Notes: generated by a model from the sequence alone, not told the origin. Positions 47,498 to 63,864 are shown, counted from the stretch's first letter. The stretch: 64,000 bases of DNA from an uncultured bacterium (GCA_964488475.1 CAZAUK010000003.1:46592-110591); one strand, 5' to 3'. A program made the numbers and translations.

Positions 47498-47542
47498 GTA
47501 TCCTCTGTGTCTGATTAGTTTCTAGCTGAAAAGGAGGAGGCC

Positions 47543-48640
47543 ATGAAAATTACTCTTAGTGTGATAAAGGCCGATATAGGTTCTATCGGAGGGCATATCA
47601 AGCCGGGCGAGAAGCTCCTGGACAGGGTGCGGAAATTCGTGAGCGATAACGCGGTCAAGCTCGCGTATGACTGGTATATCAGCTCCACGGGTGATGACAT
47701 AGCGATACTTTTAAGCCACGGCAGGGGAGTGGGCGATAAAGATATTCACGCCCTGGCCTGGAACGCATTCACCGAAGGTACCGAGCTGGCAAAAGAAATG
47801 GGTCTTTACGGAGCGGGGCAGGATCTGCTCAAGGACGCCTTCAGCGGAAACGTCAAGGGAATGGGGCCCGCGGTCGCGGAGATGGAATTCGAGGAGCGCC
47901 CTAACGAACCGTTCCTGTTCTTCGCCGCCGACAAGACAGATCCAGGCGCCTACAACCTTCCCCTTTACCTGTCCTACTGTGATCCCATGTACTGCAGCGG
48001 CCTCATTCTGGCACCCAAGATGTCGGATGGTTTCAGGTTCGATATCATGGACGTTTCCTATACCGAGGGAGACAGGGTGGTATCTCTTGACTCTCCGGAA
48101 GAGCTGTACGAGATAGCGGCCCTTCTAAGAGACAATCAGAGGTTCGTGGTGGAAAAGGTCGTTTCAAGAAAAACCGGAGATATCGCTGCGGCCGTAAGCA
48201 CCACCAGGCTTCATAATATCGCCGGTAAATACACCGGCAAGGACGATCCGGTCATGCTGACGAGGGTTCAGGGCAACTTTCCCGCAACCGGCGAGATGCT
48301 GGCACCCTATTCCAAAGGCCATCTGGTGGCTGGATTTATGAGAGGAAGTCATAACGGCCCGCTGATGCCGGTGAAGCTGAATTCCCCTATTTCCTATTTC
48401 GACGGGCCGCCGATCGTCAGTTGCGCCGCTTTCTGCGTCCACGAAGGGAAGCTGACCGAAGCGGCGGATGTATTCGATCACCCTCTCTGGGAGCACGTAA
48501 GGGACAAGGTTTCCGGAAAGGCCCTGGATATCAGGGAACAGGGTTTCAGCGGGGCGGCGATGCTGGGATACGAAGAGCTCGAATACGGTGGAATAGTGGA
48601 GATCATGAATAGAATAGAAAGTAAATTCAAAATAAGGTAA
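47543..48640 (+). CDS. fbp: Bifunctional fructose-1,6-bisphosphate aldolase/phosphatase (class V FBPase, archaeal type)
   Basis: The N-terminus MKITLSVIKADIGSIGGH matches the archaeal FBP aldolase/phosphatase signature (MK.T.SVIKADIGS..GH). 365 aa, with a strong SD (GGAGGAGG). Confidence 0.8.
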   Translation: MKITLSVIKADIGSIGGHIKPGEKLLDRVRKFVSDNAVKLAYDWYISSTGDDIAILLSHGRGVGDKDIHALAWNAFTEGTELAKEMGLYGAGQDLLKDAFSGNVKGMGPAVAEMEFEERPNEPFLFFAADKTDPGAYNLPLYLSYCDPMYCSGLILAPKMSDGFRFDIMDVSYTEGDRVVSLDSPEELYEIAALLRDNQRFVVEKVVSRKTGDIAAAVSTTRLHNIAGKYTGKDDPVMLTRVQGNFPATGEMLAPYSKGHLVAGFMRGSHNGPLMPVKLNSPISYFDGPPIVSCAAFCVHEGKLTEAADVFDHPLWEHVRDKVSGKALDIREQGFSGAAMLGYEELEYGGIVEIMNRIESKFKIR

Positions 48641-49910: not shown

Positions 49911-50756
49911 ATGGTACTGGGAGAATTTACACTGAAGCCGGTTACGGCGGGAACCCTTCTTCTGGACGGGGGAGCGATGTTCGGGGTTGTGCCAAAAGCC
50001 TTATGGAGCAAGACCAATCCAGCCGACGACAGGAACAGGATCTCAATGCATATGAGAACTCTTTACATCGAGGGAAGAGAGCGCAGAATACTGATTGACA
50101 GCGGGGCTGGAACCAAGCTTGACCAGAAAATGCTGGATAATTATGGAATCGAATGCGAAGATTTCGGAACAGTCCTTCGAAGAGAAGGCATTGACCCGGA
50201 ATCAATTACCGATGTTGTTTCGACCCATCTTCACTTCGACCATGCCGGGGGCCTGACCCACTATGATTCCGGCGAAGAGTTGAAGTTGACCTTCCCGGAC
50301 GCCGTTCACCATATTCAGAGGAAGCAATGGGAAGCGGCGGTCAATCCCAATGAAAAGGACAGGGCCAGTTTCTTCCAGGAAAATTTTGTTCCGGTCCGCG
50401 AGGCAGGCAAGCTTTCCCTGGTCGAGGGAGAGAAGGATATAGCCCCCGGCGTAAGGGTATTGCCGACAGAAGGCCACACTCCGGGACACCAGGTCGTCCT
50501 GCTTGAGACAGCAGAAGGAAACCTGCTCTACTGTGGCGACCTCATTCCGCTGGCTTCCCATGTAAACCTTCCTTACATAATGGCCTACGATCACTTTCCA
50601 CTGAAGACCCTTCAGGAGAAGAAAAGGATACTCGCCAAGGCCGCCGATGAAAACTGGATACTTTTCTTTGAGCATGACCCCTTCATGGCAGCTTGCCGGG
50701 TAAGGCGTGATGACAGGGGAAGGTTCGAGATCTCCCAGCAGATCGATATGGAGTAA
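49911..50756 (+). CDS. MBL-fold metallo-hydrolase
   Basis: The HLHFDHAGG motif and downstream His/Asp ligands (TEGHTPGH). Confidence 0.8.
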   Translation: MVLGEFTLKPVTAGTLLLDGGAMFGVVPKALWSKTNPADDRNRISMHMRTLYIEGRERRILIDSGAGTKLDQKMLDNYGIECEDFGTVLRREGIDPESITDVVSTHLHFDHAGGLTHYDSGEELKLTFPDAVHHIQRKQWEAAVNPNEKDRASFFQENFVPVREAGKLSLVEGEKDIAPGVRVLPTEGHTPGHQVVLLETAEGNLLYCGDLIPLASHVNLPYIMAYDHFPLKTLQEKKRILAKAADENWILFFEHDPFMAACRVRRDDRGRFEISQQIDME

Positions 50757-50760
50757 AAGT

Positions 50761-51327
50761 TTGAATGACGCCGAGTTGATGAGACGCACAGCAGCCGGTG
50801 ACACCGAATCCTTCCGAGTCCTGGTAGAGAGGTACCAGCGGAACATATTTAATTTTTTTCTCAGATCCACTGGAAACACCGAAGACGCAGAGGATCTTTC
50901 CCAGACACTTTTTCTGAATCTTTTCAAAAGCGCGGCCAGATACCGGGAAACAGCGTCATTCAATACATACATATTCAGGATAGCCGCGAATATCGCCGCC
51001 AGTTTTGCCAGAAAAGGTGGATCGGTAAAGGTGTTTTCTCTGGAAGAGGAATCCGGTGAAACGATGGAATTGGAAGACCTTAGAACGCCTGATCCTGTAA
51101 CAGGGGTAGAAACGAGTGAACTTGAAAAACGATACTTGGAAGCCTTGTCCCGGCTTCCCGCGGACATGAAGATAGCCATGGAATTGAGAGTGGCGGAGGG
51201 TTTTACCTACAAGGAGATAGCCGGCATAATGGGGAAGAGCGTACCAGCTGTGGAGTCTATAATATTCAGGGCGAGGAAGAGGTTGGCAGCCGCTCTCGCA
51301 GACCTTGCCAGAGGCTCGAATGAGTAG
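50761..51327 (+). CDS. RNA polymerase sigma factor, ECF (sigma-70 family group 4)
   Basis: Region 2 (LVERYQRNIFNFFLRSTGNTEDAEDLSQTLFLNLF) and region 4 helix-turn-helix (GFTYKEIAGIMGKSVPAVESIIFRARKRL). The TTG start at 50761 was chosen after the stop of the upstream gene; the ATG at 50779 is an alternative. Confidence 0.8.
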   Translation: MNDAELMRRTAAGDTESFRVLVERYQRNIFNFFLRSTGNTEDAEDLSQTLFLNLFKSAARYRETASFNTYIFRIAANIAASFARKGGSVKVFSLEEESGETMELEDLRTPDPVTGVETSELEKRYLEALSRLPADMKIAMELRVAEGFTYKEIAGIMGKSVPAVESIIFRARKRLAAALADLARGSNE

Positions 51328-51399
51328 TGAAATGAAAAAACACAATTTTTTATGCAAGTTTTTTGTTTTTGCCGCGTTTGTAATAAACAGAAGGAGTTA

Positions 51400-51852
51400 A
51401 TGGTGAATTGTAAAGATTTCAAGAAGCTGATCTCCAGGGAAATCGACGGAGAGATCACAGAGCGACAGAGAGATTCACTCAACCGGCATCTTAAGACCTG
51501 CCGGTCATGCTCTCTCTTCAGAGAATCGCTGCGATCTATCAGCCGGATCCATGCCGGGTTACCTGATCAAAAACCGCCTGATTCGATGACTGACGTCATC
51601 ATGCGCAGAGTCCAGAGGGTGGAACGCGGTAACCGGTTTGCCGGTTGGGCGAGGGCGGCGGTAGCAGCCGCGGCAGTGCTGGTTATGATCGCCGGCGCCG
51701 GTGTAGGGAATTTCATCGCTCAGAGGTCCGCGGACATTTTCTTCCATGAACAGGAGAGCATCTTCGGTGTCGAATACCTGGGGGTTCATCCTCCCGATTC
51801 GATGGGCGATGTCCTGCTGGCGGCGATGGAGGAGTACGAAAATGACCAGTAG
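51400..51852 (+). CDS. Anti-sigma factor, zf-HC2 type (putative zinc-finger anti-sigma with transmembrane helix)
   Basis: N-terminal CKDF...H...CRSC (HxxxCxxC-type) motif, a central transmembrane segment (AAVAAAAVLVMIAGAG), AAGGAG upstream of the ATG, and a position directly after the ECF sigma gene. Confidence 0.7.
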   Translation: MVNCKDFKKLISREIDGEITERQRDSLNRHLKTCRSCSLFRESLRSISRIHAGLPDQKPPDSMTDVIMRRVQRVERGNRFAGWARAAVAAAAVLVMIAGAGVGNFIAQRSADIFFHEQESIFGVEYLGVHPPDSMGDVLLAAMEEYENDQ

Positions 51853-52351
51853 AAGCCTGAAGTTCGTTCTGATCATTTCGCTGGCCTTCAATATCGCTGT
51901 TTTCGCTGTTTTTTCAATTCTCTTTTTCTCTCAGCGGGTCACCTCGGAAGAGAGTGAAGCCCTTGACGGAAAGAGAGTATGCGATCCAAGCAGGTGCGTT
52001 GAGTTCGCGAGAAGATTTGGGCTTAAACCCGGGAAAGCCGAAAGATTCGCCAGCGAGATGTCCGGTTTCGGTGAGGAGGAGAGGGCGATAAGGATAGCAA
52101 TCATCGAGGCTCGCGGTCAGCTTATGGATCTTCTACGAGAAACACCGCAGAATGAAGATGAGATCATGAAGAAGGTGGACCGGATCTCATCTCTTCAGGG
52201 CCGGATGGAAAGAATGCTGGTCAGAAGGCTCCTTCGGGTTAATTCGGTTCTCAGCGAATCTGAGAGAGAGAGATTGCACAGGCATCTAATGCACAGAATG
52301 GGGAGAGGCCCGCGGCGCGAAGGCTGTCAGCGGAGAATTCCCCGAAGATAG
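51842..52351 (+). CDS. Membrane-anchored periplasmic CpxP/Spy/ZraP/CnrX-like (LTXXQ / Metal_resist-type) helical protein
   Basis: The ATG overlaps the anti-sigma stop. It has an N-terminal transmembrane helix and a helical charged domain with LxxxxRxxL repeats (LSESERERLHRHL). Assignment is by architecture only. Confidence 0.45.
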   Translation: MTSRSLKFVLIISLAFNIAVFAVFSILFFSQRVTSEESEALDGKRVCDPSRCVEFARRFGLKPGKAERFASEMSGFGEEERAIRIAIIEARGQLMDLLRETPQNEDEIMKKVDRISSLQGRMERMLVRRLLRVNSVLSESERERLHRHLMHRMGRGPRREGCQRRIPRR

Positions 52352-52366
52352 AAATGGAGGATAAAA

Positions 52367-52924
52367 ATGACCAAGAGCAGGATTCTCGCGGCGGTTGTAG
52401 TTCTGATTGTTCTAACATCAATTCCTCTGGCCGCCCGGCAAAGGGGAAGAATGACATCAAGAGATCATGATTGCATGGCGACGTGGATGAAGGATCTCAC
52501 TGAAGAGCAGATGGATAAGATGGCGAAGATGAAGTTGAAACACCGTCAGGAGCTGGTTGATCCTAAGGCTGACGCGAAAAAAATTCATCTTAAGATCAAG
52601 GAAGAGTTGATGGCCGATAACCCGGATCGTAAAAATCTGGAAAGGCTTTTCAATAAGTTGTCCGACGCCAAGGAAAGCATTCACATGAAGAAGATCGGGT
52701 TCATGCTGGATTCGAGGGAAATACTTGGGGAGAAGCACTGGAAGGTGTTCCTGAAGCATCATCTGGACGGTTATGGAGGCATGGGCCATTGTGGACACAC
52801 CGGTATGAACAAAGGATGTATGGGTGGAAAGGGAATGAAAGGCTGCGGGGGTGGACGGGGGACAAAAGGCGGTTGTTCAAGGTCTGGAATGGGAATGAAG
52901 GGTAGAATGAGGGCCGGCCGGTAA
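52367..52924 (+). CDS. Periplasmic LTXXQ-motif (CpxP/ZraP-like) protein with a C-terminal Cys/Met/His/Gly-rich putative metal-binding tail
   Basis: Signal peptide and the LTEEQMDKM motif. The C-terminus is GHCGHTGMNKGCMGGKGMKGCGGGRGTKGGCSRSGMGMKGRM. Confidence 0.6.
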   Translation: MTKSRILAAVVVLIVLTSIPLAARQRGRMTSRDHDCMATWMKDLTEEQMDKMAKMKLKHRQELVDPKADAKKIHLKIKEELMADNPDRKNLERLFNKLSDAKESIHMKKIGFMLDSREILGEKHWKVFLKHHLDGYGGMGHCGHTGMNKGCMGGKGMKGCGGGRGTKGGCSRSGMGMKGRMRAGR

Positions 52925-56752: not shown

Positions 56753-57523
56753 TCAGGGAGTATTTATTCTCGCCAGGGTCCAATGCCGGCCGGTTACTCC
56801 ATTGTCACGCCGATATGAGAAGCAGAGATCCTCCCGGCAGTTGGTGCAGACTTCCGAATCATAAATATTCCGCTTCCTCAGCCCGCAGCCGGCAAGTTCG
56901 CGTTTTATGAATTTCAGAAGGTCCAGGTGATAGCAGCCGTTCCTCCCTGCTGTCACTTCCCGCGGGAATTTCCGTGCTATCGAATTATCAACCCTGTAAC
57001 ATTCAGCGCAGATGCCGGGCCCTATCAGCGCTATGGCATATTCTGTCGCGATCCTGAACTCTGACCTGAGAATTCCAATGGCTGCGGTTATTATTCCTTT
57101 CGCCGCGCCGCTTCTTCCCACATGAAGAACGGCTAGAGTATTTTCCGGAGGTGAGTATACGACAACCGGATAACAGTCAGCCGTGCTGATGGCAAGGGCC
57201 AGGCCTTCCCGGCCGGTGATGAGGCCGTCGGTATCTGCGTATTTCCCGCCTCTATTCACCACCGCGATATTCGTTCCGTGGACCTGACCGCACCTGGCCA
57301 GTCCGCCGCCCGGTATCTGCAGGGATTTGAGAAGCCTTTTTCTGTTTGTACGGATCCTATTGAGTTCCGCGCCCCCCTCTCCTCCCAGGTCAAGCGACTG
57401 GTAGGGATGGCAGCTGATTCCACCCGTTCTGGTCGCGAAATAAAACTCAAGATTGGGCGCTAAGATCTTGAGGACCGGGAAAACACCCAAATTGAAACCA
57501 TCCTTTGAGATTAGATCCATCAT
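56753..57523 (-). CDS. YfiH/PgeF-family (DUF152, Cu-oxidase_4) purine nucleoside phosphorylase / peptidoglycan editing factor
   Basis: QVHGTNIAVV...ADTDGLITG...ISTADCYPVVVY...LHVGRSGAAKGI motifs. Confidence 0.8.
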   Translation of the reverse strand: MMDLISKDGFNLGVFPVLKILAPNLEFYFATRTGGISCHPYQSLDLGGEGGAELNRIRTNRKRLLKSLQIPGGGLARCGQVHGTNIAVVNRGGKYADTDGLITGREGLALAISTADCYPVVVYSPPENTLAVLHVGRSGAAKGIITAAIGILRSEFRIATEYAIALIGPGICAECYRVDNSIARKFPREVTAGRNGCYHLDLLKFIKRELAGCGLRKRNIYDSEVCTNCREDLCFSYRRDNGVTGRHWTLARINTP

Positions 57524-57767
57524 TCGTCTGTTCCTTTGAAGCGGGTTGGCATTCGACCGGCGGTTTTTTCGAGACTAAACCACCATTAGGATAATTCTAT
57601 ATTTAAGGATGAGCGTTTTCAACAAATGTTTAGGCGGACTGATATATTTAAAGCGGTGTTTGAGACTGGTCAGGCGGATAAGCCTCCAGCGGCGGATGAG
57701 TAAAATGGTTAAATAAACCAACCGAACCGCCGGGAAAAAGGGTCACAGCCTGGACCCGAGCACGATT

Positions 57768-59624
57768 CTAATGCCGGCCGCGTCCTCCACTCGATCTTCT
57801 GGAAGAGCCTCCCGAAGAACTCCCCGAAGACCGTCCCGATGAACGGGACCTTCCGCTTCCGGAGCTTCCCCTGGAGCGGGTTGTTCTAGAGCTCTTTCCC
57901 GCGCTGCTTCCGGAGCTTCTTCTGGAGCGGGTTGTTGTGGAGCTCTTTTCCGGACTTTTCCTTCTTTGAGTTGATCTAGTACTGCGGGTTGGACGGCTTC
58001 TGGAATCATCGTCCCGGCTTTTTCTTACCGACCGGGATTTGTCCTTCCCTGACGTTTTTCTTTGGATTATTCTGTCCGATCTCCCGCTTCTGGGCCGGAC
58101 CACCGAACGGTTATCCGATTTTCTGTCGTAATTTCTGTCTCTTCGATAGCTGGTCCGGGAATCTCTGGTGGCTCTGCGGGTTCTATCTACAGTTCCTGCC
58201 GACCTTTTCGATCCACTCCGCACCGATGACCCCCGGCGGTCTCCGTATATGACCCTGGTCCTGGGATTGTATCTTGTCCTTGTGTTTGAGGACGTTTTTC
58301 TGACATATCCGCGGGCTGATCCCGATCCCCGGGAGGATAGAGACCTGGAAAGCCTGGAGTCTTGGCTGCGTCTACGAACCGCACTGGCTATACGTTTTCG
58401 GGCAAGCCTGCTGCCCCTCAGGGATTTTTCTTTCCTGTTCCTGCTGAGGGTGGCGTAGTAGTTAAGGGTGCGTCTTCTGAAATTCCTTCCCGCGTATAAT
58501 GACCTGGAATTGTAATGATGATCCCGCCACCAGTAATTATAAGGATGGTGCCAGGCATAGTATGGATAGTAGCCATACCAGCCGTAGTGATTCCAGTTGC
58601 TCCAGCCTATTCCGAAACCCCAATAGTAGGAGTCACCGTAGTGATAAGAAGGATACCAGTAGCTGTATCCGAACCCATGATGGGGGTAAAGGTATCCATG
58701 GTAGGGATAGTAGCCGTGATTCCAGTAGCTTATGGACAGGTGAACATCGGTTTCGTCGGTTTCAAATAGCTCATCGTCCCAGTCGTTGGAAAGATTATCC
58801 TCGTAGTAAGTAGTCGAAGAGTAATAGTCATCATCACCTGTAGCCGAGGAGTAATACTCTTCGGCTGATACCTCATCCACGTGGACTATGTTGTAAAGCG
58901 GAGGGTAGGGGTAATCCAGCTTGGTATCGTAATAATTCTTTTCGATACTTATCTCTGAGCATTGTTCAGCATAGGGGTCCGTGAACTTATCCGCGCCGTG
59001 GCATTCGGCGCAAAGGTATGAAGGATATTCCACCATCCTATTGACAAAGAAGTAGGTATGATCCGTGGCCGGCGGGGTTTCTTCGATATCTTCCACCAGG
59101 CTCTCATCTATCATATTGAACGCCAGGTAGGGGTCCAGATCGGTTCTGAATCTTTTTTCCCTGGGGAGTTGATAATTTTTGCTGAGGAAATAGAGTTCCT
59201 GCTCGTCGATCGAGCCCCGGTTCTCTACAGCTATGGCGTGTATATACTCGATACCCGTTTTGCCACCCGCCTCAAGCCTCAGATCGCTTCCCCTTTCGGG
59301 TACTGTATAGACCTTGTTGCCTTCAGCTGTTCTCAGTTTTCCATCCGACGGATAGAGAAGGTTCACAAAACCTTCACTGTCTATATTGTAAATAACCACG
59401 TAGGAATTACGGTTTGCCTTGAAACTCAGCCCTATATTTTTACCCGGGAATAAAATCTCCCCGTCTCCCCCTATAAGGCGTACCGAGACGCCCAGCCCGG
59501 TTTCACTGTAGGGCTCATTGGAAGCTCCTCTGGTAAACTCTACCGCGCTTGAGGCCGATGCTATCAAAAGTGAAACGAGTAAAAGGAGAGAAACGGTTGA
59601 ATATCTCTTTTTCATTTTAACCAC
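57768..59624 (-). CDS. Secreted protein with an N-terminal DUF4384-like domain, a Tyr/Trp/His-rich block and a roughly 250 aa Arg/Ser-rich basic low-complexity tail
   Basis: Signal peptide MKKRYSTVSLLLLVSLLIASASSA. DUF4384-like segment LGVSVRLIGGDGEILFPGKNIGLSFKANRNSYVVIYNIDSEGFVNLLYPSDG. A CAECHG motif. The aromatic block YYPYHGYLYPHHGFGYSYWYPSYHYGDSYYWGFGIGWSNWNHYGWYGYYPYYAWHHPYNYWW. The remainder is RS/SR/RR repeats down to ...SSGGRGRH. SD AAGGGAG and a -35/-10 lie upstream. Confidence 0.7.
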   Translation of the reverse strand: MVKMKKRYSTVSLLLLVSLLIASASSAVEFTRGASNEPYSETGLGVSVRLIGGDGEILFPGKNIGLSFKANRNSYVVIYNIDSEGFVNLLYPSDGKLRTAEGNKVYTVPERGSDLRLEAGGKTGIEYIHAIAVENRGSIDEQELYFLSKNYQLPREKRFRTDLDPYLAFNMIDESLVEDIEETPPATDHTYFFVNRMVEYPSYLCAECHGADKFTDPYAEQCSEISIEKNYYDTKLDYPYPPLYNIVHVDEVSAEEYYSSATGDDDYYSSTTYYEDNLSNDWDDELFETDETDVHLSISYWNHGYYPYHGYLYPHHGFGYSYWYPSYHYGDSYYWGFGIGWSNWNHYGWYGYYPYYAWHHPYNYWWRDHHYNSRSLYAGRNFRRRTLNYYATLSRNRKEKSLRGSRLARKRIASAVRRRSQDSRLSRSLSSRGSGSARGYVRKTSSNTRTRYNPRTRVIYGDRRGSSVRSGSKRSAGTVDRTRRATRDSRTSYRRDRNYDRKSDNRSVVRPRSGRSDRIIQRKTSGKDKSRSVRKSRDDDSRSRPTRSTRSTQRRKSPEKSSTTTRSRRSSGSSAGKSSRTTRSRGSSGSGRSRSSGRSSGSSSGGSSRRSSGGRGRH

Positions 59625-59680
59625 TCCCTTGCAGGGAAAATCCAGACCCTGCTGTAATTAACACAGGGACACACATTTCA

Positions 59681-59709
59681 AGTATAATCATTTTTCGCTT
59701 TTTTTACAA
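59681..59709 (-). promoter_or_regulatory. Sigma70-like promoter for the DUF4384/RS-tail gene
   Basis: On the minus strand: TTGTAA (-35; + coordinates 59704-59709), a 17-nt spacer, and TATACT (-10; 59681-59686). It lies about 55 nt upstream of the start codon. Confidence 0.45.
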
Positions 59710-60116
59710 GGTCTTAAAGCTTTGCCCTCCGTATTATTATACTCCTAACAGCTTAATATAGTTTCAATTAGTTTAATATCTCCGCCCGGCTCAGAAAAAG
59801 CCGGCCGGCCGGTTCACAGCATCGGCGCGATCTTAGAAACAGCCGCCTCGCTCAGCGCGATACTCATGCCGGCCGGACGGGAATATAGATCTACCCGGCC
59901 CGCTCTCAGATATTTCCTAATTTCCCTCTTGCATTTTCAACCCCCAACATCTTCTATTAGTAAAAGCAGTTTCAGGTTCAGCCGTCCAGCGGGCGGTCTG
60001 GATTCTGAAATCGCGGCACCCGGGGTAAAAACCGGATATATGGCTGAAACTATTTGGCCCTTCGAAGAGTAAAATGAATAAACTCTGTAAAAGATTACCG
60101 AATGAGGAGGATGTAC

Positions 60117-60800
60117 ATGGGTTTTGACGGGATACCGATATTCCTGCAGATAGCTGAAAGTTTCGTGGAGCTGATATCCCGAACCGGGGTTTTAGCCAAA
60201 TCGGTTTTAGCCCTGCTTCTTATCCTTTCGGTGGTATCTTGGACCATAATTGTAGAGAAGATAAGGTACTTCAGACGGGCATCAAAACAGGGAAAGGGTT
60301 TCAGAAAGGAGTTCTCGGAGGAATCCTCTCTGAACAGACTCAGCGAAAAAGCCGGCCGGCATCCAGACAGCGCGGAAGCCCAGCTGGTCACTCTGATTGG
60401 CAGGGAGGTCGGGAGGGGGGAACTGGGGGACATGAAATTTCTTGATAAATACCTGGACTCCGGAATGGATTCGATTATAGCGGAGTGGGAGGGTTACCTG
60501 ATATTCCTTTCGACCACGGCCACTATTTCTCCGTTTCTGGGGCTTCTCGGGACTGTCTGGGGTATAATGAGTTCCTTCATAAGCATGGGAGCCAGGGGTT
60601 CGGCGGATCTTTACGTTGTAGGCCCTGGTATCGCGGAGGCTCTTATAACCACGATCTTCGGCCTGGGGGCGGCTATACCGGCTGTTATCGGATATAATTA
60701 TATCCTCAGGATAATACGCAGGAAGGAGGATGATCTCTCATCCTTCATGGTACGTTTCAGAAGCCGGCTGTTGGACCGAAGATACCAGGAGTTGAAGTAG
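60117..60800 (+). CDS. tolQ: Tol-Pal system protein TolQ (MotA/TolQ/ExbB proton channel family)
   Basis: The GLLGTVWGIMSSF motif and three transmembrane helices. GAGGAGG lies 6 nt upstream of the ATG at 60117. It is first in a tolQRAB-pal cluster. Confidence 0.85.
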   Translation: MGFDGIPIFLQIAESFVELISRTGVLAKSVLALLLILSVVSWTIIVEKIRYFRRASKQGKGFRKEFSEESSLNRLSEKAGRHPDSAEAQLVTLIGREVGRGELGDMKFLDKYLDSGMDSIIAEWEGYLIFLSTTATISPFLGLLGTVWGIMSSFISMGARGSADLYVVGPGIAEALITTIFGLGAAIPAVIGYNYILRIIRRKEDDLSSFMVRFRSRLLDRRYQELK

Positions 60801-60839
60801 GCCGGGTCAAACTCAATAGATTTGCGCTGGAGAGATATA

Positions 60840-61238
60840 ATGAAAAGGCAAAGATATTCATCGCTGGCCGAGATAAATATAACCAATCTTGTTGACGTGA
60901 TGATGGTCCTTCTTATCGTTTTTATGCTGACAGCTCCCTTTCTGCAGGCGGGAGTGAGGCTGAACCTTCCCAAAGCCGAAGCTAAAGTCATAGAGGAACG
61001 GGAAGGTGTGACAGTATCGGTAGACCGGGAGGGAGATATCTTTATCAGCAAGAAGAAAGTCGAATGGGAGGAATTCTCCGGTGTTCTCCGCCGGGAACTC
61101 GATGCAGGAGCTCCCAGGGTGTTCTTGAGAGCCGATACCAAAACTGAATACGGCAAAGTTATGAAGGTTCTCGCCAGGATCAAGATGATGGGAATCGAAG
61201 ATGTGGGGCTTATCGCCGAACAGGAGAAGGAAGACTAA
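60840..61238 (+). CDS. tolR: Tol-Pal system protein TolR (ExbD/TolR family)
   Basis: EINITNLVDVMMVLLIVFM transmembrane segment with the conserved Asp, and an ExbD periplasmic domain. Confidence 0.85.
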   Translation: MKRQRYSSLAEINITNLVDVMMVLLIVFMLTAPFLQAGVRLNLPKAEAKVIEEREGVTVSVDREGDIFISKKKVEWEEFSGVLRRELDAGAPRVFLRADTKTEYGKVMKVLARIKMMGIEDVGLIAEQEKED

Positions 61239-61259
61239 AAATACTCGGGCTCGGTCAAC

Positions 61260-61901
61260 ATGAGGCTATCGGTTTTAATATCAATATTGATTCACCTTGT
61301 AATATTCTATCTCGTTCTGACGTTTTTCAACATCGTACCCCGGGTCAATCTTCCAGACAGGGTTTATTCGGTAAGGATTTTTTCTCCCTCCAGGCCGGAA
61401 CCGGAAAAGGCGCCGGAACAGGAGGTAAAGGTCGAGGAAAGTAAACCCGAGCCGGTGGTGGAGAAAAAACCCGTACCAGAGCCGAAGGAGAGTAAACCGG
61501 AGAAGAAACCAGAAGAAAAACCGGCGAAGGAGCCGGAACCGGAGAAAGATGAGTCCGTGGATGTTACCGTGGATGAAGGAACGAAGGAGGAAACGTCGGT
61601 CGCTGTAGACGCTCCCAAGTTCCCCTTTTCCTATTATCTTTCAGCCATCGAGAGGAAAGTATCGTCAAATTGGTTTTCAGGCTCGGTGGAGCACGGGACC
61701 AGCCGTTCCTGCCTGGTTTTCTTCAGGCTTGACAGGAGCGGGCGTATATCGGGTCTGAGGGTCGAGGAGAGTTCGGGGGATTCATATTTCGACAGGGCGG
61801 CTCTGAGAGCGGTCAGAAGTTCTGCTCCTTTTCCGCCTCTTCCGGGCGCATTCGACGAACCTTCACTGGGAATACATTTTAAATTCTTGCAGAGGGATTG
61901 A
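61260..61901 (+). CDS. tolA: TolA (TonB-family energy transducer with Pro/Glu/Lys-rich linker and TonB_C-like domain)
   Basis: N-terminal transmembrane helix, a PEPEKAPEQEVKVEESKPEPVVEKKPVPEPKESKPEKKPEEKPAKEPEPE linker, and a C-terminal domain (YYLSAIERKVSSNW...FFRLDRSGRISGLRV...). It lies between tolR and tolB. Confidence 0.75.
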   Translation: MRLSVLISILIHLVIFYLVLTFFNIVPRVNLPDRVYSVRIFSPSRPEPEKAPEQEVKVEESKPEPVVEKKPVPEPKESKPEKKPEEKPAKEPEPEKDESVDVTVDEGTKEETSVAVDAPKFPFSYYLSAIERKVSSNWFSGSVEHGTSRSCLVFFRLDRSGRISGLRVEESSGDSYFDRAALRAVRSSAPFPPLPGAFDEPSLGIHFKFLQRD

Positions 61902-63145
61902 TTATGCCAGAGAGAGTCATCGTTTTTCTTTTAGGGTTGCTTCTAATCTCAAATCCGGTCCTGGGCCAGACGGACGTACACCTTAAGGTCGAGAGGGCTG
62001 GAAGGGGCCGCATCCCGATCGTAGTCAGAAGAATCGATTACGGTTCGGAGGCGCTGTCTGCTTCCGCGGATTGCGTATACCGGGTCCTTAAAAACGATCT
62101 CAGGCTTACCGGAATTTTCGAGCCGATCGAGCTGGAGGCTGAATCAGACACTCTGCCGGGCGGGCGGATAGCAGCGGCGATCTTTGAGGGAAGTATAGAC
62201 TTGGACGTGGAGAGGTACGCCCTTAATGCCAGGCTTCTGGATTATTCGAGCGGGGGCGTGATATTTGAAAAGATCTACAGGTTCAGAAAGGGTACATGCA
62301 GGTCCGCCGCGCACCACCTGAGTGACGAGATCACCTATTTTCTTACAGGGGAGAACGGTGTAGCGACCACCAGAATACTTTTCGTAAGAGGAAAAAAGGG
62401 GGCAAAGGACCTTTATATGATAGATTACGACGGACATGGAGAAAGAAGGCTTACCGAGGGGGAACTGGTGGTATCCCCGCTCTGGCTGGAAAGTGGAAGG
62501 TTCTGCTACACCTCTTACAAGAGGGGTAACCCCGACTGTTATATGGTGGATCTCAGAAAAGGGTTGAGAAAACTTCTCTCTTACAGAAAGGGTCTTAACA
62601 TGGCGGGTGGATACTATCCCCGCCGGGACGATATCCTGATGACCCTGAGCGTGAGCGGAAACAGCGAGCTTTTCGTAATAGATTCCGAAGGAGAAATAAA
62701 GAGGAAGCTTACCAGAAACCGGGCTATAGACTGTTCGCCGACCTGGGCTCCCAACGGAAGAGAGATAGCTTTCGTTTCTGACAGGACCACTGTACCGCAG
62801 ATATACATAATGGATGCTTACGGGGGGAACCTCAGAAGGTTGAGCGTCACCGGACCCTACAACACTTCTCCGGACTGGTCGCCCCAGGGGGATCTGATTG
62901 CTTATGTTTCAAGACAGGGCGGTCTCTACCGGCTGAAACTGATCTCACCTGACGGCCTGTGGGAGGATACTGTCTTTCAGGATTATCTGAGTTACGAGGA
63001 TCCGTCCTGGGCTCCGAACGGAAGCCATCTCGCCGTAACCGTTAATTACGGTGGAGAAAACTGGATTGTCATCGTGAATGTGGATAGCGGAGCAAAGAGG
63101 CGCCTCGCGAGGGGAGAATCTGCATGCTGGTCGCCGTCCAGATAG
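61898..63145 (+). CDS. tolB: Tol-Pal system beta-propeller protein TolB
   Basis: N-terminal TolB_N-like domain plus WD40-like PD40 repeats (SPTWAPNGREIAFVSDR..., SPDWSPQGDLIAYVS..., PSWAPNGSHLA...). Confidence 0.85.
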   Translation: MIMPERVIVFLLGLLLISNPVLGQTDVHLKVERAGRGRIPIVVRRIDYGSEALSASADCVYRVLKNDLRLTGIFEPIELEAESDTLPGGRIAAAIFEGSIDLDVERYALNARLLDYSSGGVIFEKIYRFRKGTCRSAAHHLSDEITYFLTGENGVATTRILFVRGKKGAKDLYMIDYDGHGERRLTEGELVVSPLWLESGRFCYTSYKRGNPDCYMVDLRKGLRKLLSYRKGLNMAGGYYPRRDDILMTLSVSGNSELFVIDSEGEIKRKLTRNRAIDCSPTWAPNGREIAFVSDRTTVPQIYIMDAYGGNLRRLSVTGPYNTSPDWSPQGDLIAYVSRQGGLYRLKLISPDGLWEDTVFQDYLSYEDPSWAPNGSHLAVTVNYGGENWIVIVNVDSGAKRRLARGESACWSPSR

Positions 63146-63348
63146 GGTTTTGAAAGGGATTTCTTCAGCTGGGCGCCTGAAATTCCTCTTGGATGGGATG
63201 TGAGGCGGGGAAGCGGTCAAATAATTTAGCGAGAAAGACGAAATTATTTATTTGCAAATTCCGGCATTACCGTTATTATGCAGCATTAGGAAGAGACAAT
63301 CAGGAAAATGATTGCAGGGATGCGTTTAACTGAACTGGAGGTGTTCTA

Positions 63349-63864
63349 ATGACGCGATTTGGTTATACTGGCCTGGTCTTCATTATTATTCTGTTATCTA
63401 TCCTTCCGGCTTGTTCTAAGAAGGAAGCTCCTCCTATTGAAGAGGTGAAGCCGGCGGAAGAGGAGATACCACCTCCGCCGCCCCCCATCGAAGAAGAGGT
63501 GCTGGAGGAGATTGAAGAGGTTGAGCCGGAGCCGATAGTACTGGCCGACGTATTTTTTGATTTTGATAAATACAATATCAAGGATCAGTACAAGAACGAC
63601 CTGATCAAAAACGCCGATCAGATAATGACTAGAGATGATGTAAAAGTCGTAATAGAAGGACATTGCGACGAGAGAGGAACCAAAGAATACAACCTTGCCC
63701 TGGGCGAAAAGAGGGCCAAGGCAGTAAGGGATTTCTACACCGCCTACGGTGTCGCTCCCGCAAAACTGGAAATAATCAGCTACGGCGAAGAAAAGCCATT
63801 CGCCATGGGTCATAACGAGGAGGCCTGGGCCAAAAACCGAAGAGCGCACATGGTGGTCAAGTAA
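63349..63864 (+). CDS. pal: Peptidoglycan-associated lipoprotein Pal (OmpA-family C-terminal domain)
   Basis: Lipobox LPACS and an OmpA-like domain (FDFDKYNIK...VVIEGHCDERGTKEYNLALGEKRAKAV...). A Pro/Glu-rich linker is present. Confidence 0.85.
   Translation: MTRFGYTGLVFIIILLSILPACSKKEAPPIEEVKPAEEEIPPPPPPIEEEVLEEIEEVEPEPIVLADVFFDFDKYNIKDQYKNDLIKNADQIMTRDDVKVVIEGHCDERGTKEYNLALGEKRAKAVRDFYTAYGVAPAKLEIISYGEEKPFAMGHNEEAWAKNRRAHMVVK

Follow-up and report, generated by a model that had tools for sequence, protein, structure and literature searches.

Here, we describe a gene in a 64,000-nucleotide (nt) stretch of DNA from an uncultured bacterium (GCA_964488475.1, CAZAUK010000003.1:46592-110591), hereafter referred to as the window. 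The open reading frame (ORF) at 57768..59624 on the minus strand is present as given in a preliminary description made from the sequence alone and has 618 amino acids (aa) when read from GTG; it is real and encodes an exported protein with a DUF4384 domain and segregated charges, a layout that is highly unusual for bacteria. The ATG at 59615 is probably the true start codon, rather than the in-frame GTG at 59624, because a GGGAG lies 8 nt upstream of it, a database protein with 100% identity (P0001) has 615 aa, and all homologues open with MKK or MKR. Residue numbers of segments follow the 618-aa version with the GTG start. The features of the locus, with their positions in the window, are as follows:

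57768..59615, minus strand: coding sequence, 615 aa from the ATG at 59615.
59544..59615, minus strand: Sec-type signal peptide, MKKRYSTVSLLLLVSLLIASASSA; no lipobox Cys, probable signal peptidase I site after ASA or SSA.
58875..59507, minus strand: folded N-terminal module (aa ~40-250), predicted as a DUF4384 Ig/macroglobulin-like beta-sandwich plus a conserved alpha/beta extension.
58959..59012, minus strand: CxxCH...C motif, C205-A-E-C208-H209 ... D216-P-Y218 ... C222; candidate heme-c or Cys3His metal site.
58731..58859, minus strand: acidic Tyr/Ser/Thr/Asp linker (aa 256-298), net charge −14.
58509..58730, minus strand: aromatic/Pro block (aa 299-372), 57% Y/W/F/H.
58215..58508, minus strand: conserved proximal basic tail (aa 373-470) with the motifs R..LYA.R.F.KR.L.Y..T, SRL, RSRL, and R.(V/I)YG.
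57771..58214, minus strand: variable polycationic Arg/Ser/Thr/Gly low-complexity tail (aa 471-618), ending in GGRGRH.
57855..57952, strand not assigned: tandem repeat of 51 nt (17 codons), 1.9 copies, 89% identity, encoding KSSTTTRSRRSSGSSAG / KSSRTTRSRGSSGSGRS.
59624..59628, minus strand: Shine-Dalgarno sequence GGGAG, read from the sequence, 8 nt before the ATG and overlapping the GTG.
59681..59709, minus strand: sigma-70-like promoter TTGTAA-17-TATACT, by consensus match only.
57740..57757, minus strand: terminator-like GC hairpin followed by a T-run, 10 nt past the stop codon, by consensus match only.
60102..63864, plus strand: divergent tolQ-tolR-tolA(TonB_C)-tolB-pal cluster; the adjacency is kept in orthologous groups.

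The window protein is a block polyampholyte: its folded head is acidic, and its C-terminal half is basic. The N-terminal part (aa 28-255) has a net charge of −18. The 74 residues of the aromatic block include 22 Y, 9 W, 10 H, 10 G, and 5 P, and the entire tail (aa 373-618) contains 64 R, 61 S, and 13 K, giving a net charge of +63. Accordingly, the calculated isoelectric points (pI) are 4.25 for the N-terminal half and 12.0 for the tail. When the six-frame ORFs of the window with ≥150 aa are compared, this protein is by a wide margin the outlier both in charge (+53 per 200 aa vs. at most +26 in any other ORF) and in aromatic content (58% per 60 aa vs. at most 37% elsewhere). The acidic Tyr-rich stretch, the Y/W/H/G/P block, and the basic tail that had been claimed for the protein are all three borne out by the composition of these segments.

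Several lines of sequence evidence indicate that the gene is a genuine coding sequence under selection. First, the GC content at third codon positions (GC3) of the tail, 0.55, and its Arg/Ser codon choice agree with the neighboring genes, so that the comparison of codon usage and GC3 proposed earlier gives a consistent result. Second, relative to the 79%-identical homologue P0002 (DNA from contig L093; dS 0.5-1.3), the ratio of nonsynonymous to synonymous substitution rates (dN/dS) is 0.08 in the head, 0.05 in the acidic linker, 0.25 in the aromatic block, 0.13 in the proximal tail, and 0.24 in the distal tail, and all indels are in frame. Third, the Logan assembly of run SRR7048220, which may share the reads of the source genome, contains identical DNA over 3,848 nt, including the repeat. 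The tail could in principle have been an assembly artefact or a wrong-frame read-through, and codon usage, dN/dS, and the second assembly all speak to the opposite. Nor do homologues stop before the aromatic and basic regions: both are retained in each of the 53 full-length relatives and also in relatives with as little as ~30% identity.

These 53 full-length homologues found by database search have 471-682 aa and 34-100% identity to the window protein, and all contain PF14326; the named members are from metagenome-assembled genomes (MAGs) of Candidatus Krumholzibacteriota. With aa 25-265 as query, an exhaustive phmmer search of 1.84 billion cluster representatives yielded 563 matches at E<1e-3 and 207 at E<1e-10, the latter corresponding to at least 207 clusters at 50% identity. 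The 53 homologues and these clusters share one layout: the signal peptide is followed by DUF4384 and an extension with CxxCH and a downstream Cys, then by the acidic linker and the Y/W/P block, and finally by the long basic tail. Distant matches, with head identity down to ~30%, retain the signal peptide and DUF4384 as well as the Cys motif and likewise continue into a Y/W/P-rich block and a long basic tail. Across the 53 homologues, the acidic linker has a net charge of −4 to −14, the aromatic block comprises 70-101 aa with 43-63% Y/W/F/H, and the tails, bar one truncated sequence, comprise 210-304 aa with 20-35% R+K, ~22% Ser, and a net charge of +27 to +68. C-termini are nearly always rich in K/R (RGRR, SRRK, GRKR), and basic tails are kept in >150 relatives. 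According to record titles, the organisms come from sediments, mats, and sludge. A paralogous group (P0119, P0164, P0151, P0131) is present in 98 species-representative genomes, mostly labeled Krumholzibacteriia and in some cases Fibrobacteraceae, Gemmatimonadales, Latescibacterota, or Bacteroidota. In the literature, we found no description of the combined architecture, and DUF4384 is mentioned only in passing. Our best reading of the sequences is a previously undescribed family architecture of Krumholzibacteriota and related bacteria of the Fibrobacteres-Chlorobi-Bacteroidetes (FCB) group. Two relatives have other domains attached: P0168 (874 aa) carries three tandem DUF4384 modules with the same extension followed by an OmpA peptidoglycan-binding domain, and P0149 (431 aa) carries DUF4384, a PEGA domain, and a basic tail. 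These two architectures place DUF4384 in the cell envelope.

The Pfam profile of DUF4384 (PF14326) matches aa 60-132 (59229-59447) with E=1.5e-11 and 44.6 bits against a cutoff of 27; the profile search suggested in the preliminary description thus gives a match above the gathering score. DUF4384 is the sole Pfam domain of the window protein, and Pfam searches with isolated subsegments gave nothing. Searches of the window protein against NCBIfam and PADLOC gave no match, and neither the single protein nor the family profile found a PDB sequence for the head. Structural neighbors of the predicted head fold include Vibrio cholerae RbmA and macroglobulin (MG) domains, i.e., Ig domains of matrix and surface type; at 10-15% sequence identity, this is a generic fold match and not function specific. 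DUF4384 proteins share the beta-sandwich of ~80 residues and are often extracytoplasmic and fused to envelope-binding or protease domains. Examples are the C-terminal domains of some type III-E CRISPR Csx30 proteins, orthocaspases, bacterial Ser/Thr kinases, and OmpA/PEGA fusions. By contrast, the described architectures lack a CxxCH...C extension, an aromatic block, and a polycationic tail. To our knowledge, the function of the DUF4384 domain is not known. A role in anti-phage defense, considered because of the occurrence of DUF4384 in Csx30, was rejected, as neither the window protein nor its paralogue has a match in PADLOC.

The best-conserved motif outside the sandwich is YP(R/S)YLC-x2-CH-x6-8-DPY-x3-C, and its C205, C208, and C222 are the only Cys residues of the mature protein. 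CxxCH occurs at the same position in 147 of the 174 classifiable relatives and is accompanied by the downstream Cys in 146. In fifteen of the 174, the place of the His after CxxC is taken by another residue, such as E, D, or Y, and the downstream Cys is missing in 15/15 of these. In 11 further cases, CxxCxxC occurs together with the downstream Cys, giving four Cys, and in P0008 the motif is wholly missing. Judged from this distribution, His209 and the third Cys act together and are lost jointly, because both are missing in each of these 15 relatives. Because the number of conserved Cys is odd, simple disulfides are disfavored. CxxCH motifs are typical of Sec-exported proteins, and in such a protein CxxCH is a canonical site for covalent heme c. 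A replacement of His by Cys, on the other hand, is what a Cys3His/Cys4 metal site would be expected to show. We consider the case for a covalently bound heme at this site as roughly evenly balanced. In the AlphaFold2 (AF2) model, the Cys motif has low confidence, with a predicted local distance difference test (pLDDT) score of ~49-53.

Conservation in the C-terminal half is position specific. In the aromatic region, L296, P307, Y308, P314, Y315, W335, G338, W341, Y350, P354, W358, and W365 are conserved at 80-100%, and P307 is invariant even across the superfamily. In the proximal tail, R374, R380, K/R384, R385, Y389, S405, L407, S423, L425, and G461 are conserved at ≥80%, and two conserved basic helices are predicted at 389-430 with AF2 pLDDT of 56-78. 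The preliminary description missed this conservation inside regions that it treated as low complexity, as it missed the CxxCH...C motif. Judged from the alignments, only aa ~471-618 is a truly variable polycation. The aromatic block has an AF2 pLDDT <40 in the window protein (53-sequence alignment) and in the more conserved paralogue (24-sequence alignment), and the tail is disordered in the AF2 models. In aa 256-470, Pfam gave no match at E≤10, including to the choline-binding CW_binding_1 and to GW modules. A homologue search with aa 290-470 alone, aimed at finding the aromatic and basic module on other heads, yielded no sequence, including the window protein, probably owing to composition filters.

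The tail had been compared to eukaryotic SR proteins and protamines, with which it shares a high content of Arg and Ser and a very high pI. However, the likeness to SR proteins does not extend further: RS and SR dipeptides together number 35 in the tail vs. 31.8 ± 4.5 in shuffled sequences (z=0.7), the longest run is SRSR, there is no RNA recognition motif, and the protein is bacterial and exported. The dipeptide shuffle test, thus, rules out a true RS domain. A PDB profile search gave, for the tail, only low-complexity matches to basic tails of eukaryotic nucleolar and ribosomal proteins.

The near-tandem repeat reported in the tail-coding DNA exists, but its period is 51 nt and not 48 nt. 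That such repeats expand, as had been suggested, and also contract is supported by an in-frame indel relative to P0002, which has 12 extra residues in the repeat zone, and by repeats and length variants in other tails; tandem repeats of 25-47 aa are present in the tails of P0095, P0102, P0151, and P0181. Single clusters at 90% identity vary in length, with 606, 631, and 667 aa for P0095 and 450-663 aa for P0151. Even among very close relatives, differences in the number of repeat copies appear to change the length of the tail.

The signal peptide was predicted from the arrangement of its n-, h-, and c-regions, from the cleavage motifs ASA/SSA, and from the homologues, all of which keep this layout; the AF2 model has a helix at 6-25. 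After the signal peptide, the peak 19-residue Kyte-Doolittle mean is 0.62 in the window protein and <1.6 in nearly all relatives, and a second hydrophobic segment was found in none of the relatives scanned. We infer that the window protein is exported via Sec and does not span the membrane, full export of the tail being assumed. A bitopic membrane protein was rejected, as there is no transmembrane segment after the signal peptide, and a lipoprotein was rejected, as there is no lipobox. Likewise, a cargo of the type IX secretion system (T9SS) was rejected, as there is no C-terminal sorting domain: Por_Secre_tail (TIGR04183/PF18962) matches neither the window protein nor its paralogue P0119.

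As stated in the preliminary description, the gene and tolQ are divergently oriented in the window. The same arrangement relative to tolQRA-tolB-pal-cpoB was found in every orthologue examined, i.e., P0002, P0008, P0041, P0053, and the more distant CxxC-type group of P0075 and P0089; the latter two are still divergent from tol-pal at 34-43% head identity. The downstream side of the orthologues is variable. In the loci retrieved, the paralogous group never adjoins tol-pal. Instead, a four-gene cluster that includes the paralogue recurs in essentially all 80 loci, from about 80 species genomes (L010:6066-13794; L007, L013-L092, L095), and consists of the following genes:

An acidic lipoprotein of ~300 aa with a fibronectin type III (FnIII)-like region, net charge −17 to −28.
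The DUF4384/CxxCH/aromatic/basic protein, the start of which overlaps the lipoprotein stop in L010.
An acidic protein of ~1,150-1,200 aa, nearest to "T9SS-dependent M6-like inactivated metalloprotease" (NCBIfam, E 1.6e-65, below cutoff).
An outer membrane (OM) barrel of the PorV/PorQ family, 164 bits against a cutoff of 90.

The M6-like protein has a weak Por_Secre_tail match just under the cutoffs (23.6 bits vs. 27; 22.6 vs. 23). The operon partners of the paralogue are strongly acidic, with net charges of −17 to −99. A tetratricopeptide repeat (TPR)/sigma-54 activator gene is often found upstream of the cluster. We know of no description of this four-gene module. Altogether, all genomic contexts point to the periplasm or the OM and not to nucleic acid or polyphosphate.

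What could such a protein do? Polyanion binding, phase separation, and biomineralization, all raised in the preliminary description, are physically plausible for its composition. We tentatively suggest, as a possible rather than a probable function, that it is a periplasmic or OM-associated scaffold or tether that binds anionic envelope polymers. In this scenario, the protein would be exported via Sec, processed by signal peptidase I, and occupy the periplasm or the inner face of the OM. The C-terminal half would serve as a multivalent anchor, in which the guanidinium groups of the Arg residues would bind phosphates and carboxylates of lipopolysaccharide (LPS) or lipid A, anionic phospholipids, peptidoglycan, or acidic partner proteins, and the Tyr/Trp/Pro block would add contacts to the membrane interface or to sugars by stacking (CH-pi and cation-pi). 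The folded head would contact a specific partner and would probably carry heme or metal. In this way, the protein could tether or scaffold the OM/peptidoglycan layer together with Tol-Pal, and the paralogue could do an equivalent job in a T9SS-type surface-attachment gene cluster. A tail function that depends on charge and valency is suggested because length, charge, and the K/R terminus are kept while sequence and repeats turn over.

A partial precedent is provided by the Bacillus spore-coat proteins CotB (SKR-B region) and CotG, which have long, repeat-derived, disordered regions rich in Ser and Arg/Lys and are substrates of the kinase CotH (PMC7821199). They share with the window protein that they are bacterial proteins of an envelope layer with cationic, Ser-rich disordered regions, and by analogy the tail described here might have a structural role. 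By contrast, CotB and CotG assemble in the mother-cell cytoplasm, are not Sec-exported, are polyphosphorylated by a dedicated neighboring kinase, and lack an aromatic block and DUF4384; the window protein has no kinase gene nearby and no sequence homology to them.

Several observations weigh against a tether. Moving a tail of +63 through SecYEG against the membrane potential is energetically unfavorable. AF2 yields no structure of the aromatic block in either paralogue. We found no homology of the protein to TolQ, TolR, TolA, TolB, Pal, CpoB, or YbgC, and part of the tolQ adjacency may reflect inherited gene order rather than functional coupling, because the closest group is syntenic across the whole region, including ECF (extracytoplasmic function) sigma/anti-sigma/Metal_resist genes, an aminotransferase, and PTS-IIA (phosphotransferase system). 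Finally, a pure tether would have no need of the conserved CxxCH...C motif, which hints at redox chemistry or a cofactor.

This last point leads to the alternative that the protein is primarily a c-type, i.e., covalent-heme, redox protein that transfers electrons or senses redox state or gases at the envelope, with His209 as proximal and Cys222 (or Tyr218) as distal ligand, and with the Tyr/Trp block and tail positioning the protein or relaying radicals. SoxA and TsdA are c-type cytochromes with His/Cys ligation, and with monoheme c-type cytochromes in general the window protein shares a CxxCH in a Sec-exported protein and a conserved Cys as possible axial ligand. The position of CxxCH is constant in the great majority of relatives, with the His always directly after the second Cys; the three Cys of the mature protein all lie in the motif, an odd number that is unusual for disulfides in an exported protein; the joint loss of His and downstream Cys (15/15) is as expected for one shared cofactor; and the AF2 confidence falls locally at the motif. 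Moreover, Cyc2-like cytochromes and cytochrome c oxidase have been reported from MAGs of Krumholzibacteriota, which implies that maturation systems for c-type cytochromes exist in the phylum (PMC9769843). However, Pfam, including the subsegment searches, PDB, and structure comparison revealed no sequence or fold similarity to any cytochrome family. A whole subgroup adjoining tolQ has CxxC without His, P0008 lacks the motif, and in the 11 sequences with CxxCxxC...C the ligand swap is typical of Cys4/Cys3His zinc sites or of paired disulfides. Cytochrome maturation genes and multiheme or multi-CxxCH ORFs were found neither in the window nor in ~1.5 Mb of related loci, which is a weak argument, as this sampling is local. 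We consider a primarily redox role unlikely; it may coexist with the tether.

A second alternative is a secreted, extracellular adhesive or a binder of minerals or matrix (silica, clay, extracellular DNA, or acidic exopolysaccharide), which would act as a biofilm cement or in biomineralization. The composition of the tail resembles cationic silica-binding peptides, namely the Bacillus cereus CotB1 peptide CotB1p (SGRARAQRQSSRGR) and SB7 (RQSSRGR) (PMC11818168). Like CotB1 and diatom silaffins, the family has Arg/Ser-rich cationic C-termini, with ends such as SSRGRR, SRSRGRR, and GGRGRH, and the window protein ends in SSRRSSGGRGRH (57771-57800). The habitats, too, would suit such a function. 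However, the CotB1 tail has 14-30 residues vs. ~250 here, the likeness is purely compositional and, thus, a lead and not a test, and the context holds no hint of mineralization: both conserved contexts represent envelope machinery rather than exopolysaccharide- or mineral-related genes. In addition, surface cargo in these bacteria is served by T9SS C-terminal sorting domains, for which the window protein has no match. Altogether, this alternative appears distinctly unlikely.

Third, the protein could be a self-coacervating scaffold, in which Tyr/Trp stickers pair with Arg by cation-pi interactions and the acidic head attracts the basic tail, in that way forming a periplasmic or surface condensate that concentrates partners. 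Pairing of Tyr and Arg is an established driver of condensation for FUS-family proteins. The strict segregation of acidic, aromatic, and basic blocks throughout the family, the disorder of the tail in AF2, and the strongly acidic operon partners of the paralogue are in line with this idea. Conversely, the aromatic block and the proximal tail are conserved by position, with invariant Pro and Trp, which suggests a defined structure or interface. We regard this scenario as markedly improbable. The same low probability applies to a composite in which an Ig-like head with a covalent heme (possibly His/Cys-ligated), the Tyr/Trp/Pro block, and the disordered, Arg-rich tail of ~250 residues assemble, by cation-pi and charge-block interactions, into a condensate or gel layer that is periplasmic or lines the OM from the inside. 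This layer would work with Tol-Pal and, in the case of the paralogue, with the T9SS-type attachment module and would possibly be hardened or regulated by heme-driven Tyr/Trp redox chemistry.

A split topology, in which export is limited to the N-terminal half, with the aromatic block as an unconventional stop-transfer or interfacial anchor and a cytoplasmic tail that binds nucleic acid, ribosomes, or polyphosphate, is highly unlikely. The order of acidic linker, aromatic block, and polybasic tail would fit the positive-inside rule around a membrane segment, such a topology would avoid the cost of exporting +63 charges, and the PDB profile matches of the tail are to nucleolar and ribosomal basic tails, albeit low-complexity ones. 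However, in none of the relatives does hydrophobicity after the signal peptide reach the level of a transmembrane helix (19-residue mean <1.6), and the block contains much Tyr, His, Gly, and Pro, with Arg and Asp present in paralogues. Finally, mis-assembly, a frameshifted read-through, or a noncoding extension, which low-complexity and repeat-containing DNA might bring about, can be dismissed in view of the native codon usage, the in-frame indel relative to P0002, a dN/dS of ~0.2, the identical second assembly, and the tails in >150 relatives.

If the protein is indeed a tether or scaffold, it would represent a new, phylum-wide means of holding the diderm envelope together, i.e., a polycationic, disordered "glue" beside Tol-Pal that substitutes for the Lpp- or OmpA-type links known from Proteobacteria. 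Moreover, it would be among the clearest bacterial cases of an exported, long, Arg-rich, intrinsically disordered region and raises the question of how SecYEG moves ~+60 charges against the membrane potential. If it forms a condensate, it would represent a new kind of envelope material in diderm bacteria. Independently of the function of the tail, the CxxCH...C site could define a new heme- or metal-binding extension of the widespread DUF4384 domain. The fixed place of the paralogue among a lipoprotein, an M6-like protein, and a PorV/Q barrel offers an entry to an undescribed T9SS-associated module, and the tail and the aromatic block are candidate natural tags for anionic surfaces.

In addition to these features, the neighborhood of the gene contains other elements. 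In the intergenic region between tolQ and the DUF4384 gene, Rfam gave no match to a regulatory RNA at E≤1. Small ORFs are present in this region: one of 40 aa in contigs of the closest homologue (L093:1237-1359, L094:614-736) and, in the window, a 17-codon ORF with an ATG at ~59813-59866 on the minus strand. The gene downstream, at 56753-57523 on the minus strand, encodes a Cu-oxidase_4 (YfiH/PgeF-type) protein and also follows the orthologues in L001, L002, L093, and L096; in L003 and L004, a PALP gene is inserted between the orthologue and Cu-oxidase_4, so that this link is not strict. Further away, at 50704-52921, the window encodes an ECF sigma factor and a zf-HC2 anti-sigma factor together with two periplasmic proteins of the Metal_resist (Spy/CpxP-like) family. 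This block, which looks like an envelope-stress module, is also found near the orthologues in L001, L002, and L004. At 47519-48637 on the plus strand, the window encodes an FBPase_3 (PF01950) protein (E=1.8e-156), a strong match that places it in class V of the fructose-1,6-bisphosphatases, a type familiar chiefly from archaea and deep-branching bacteria.

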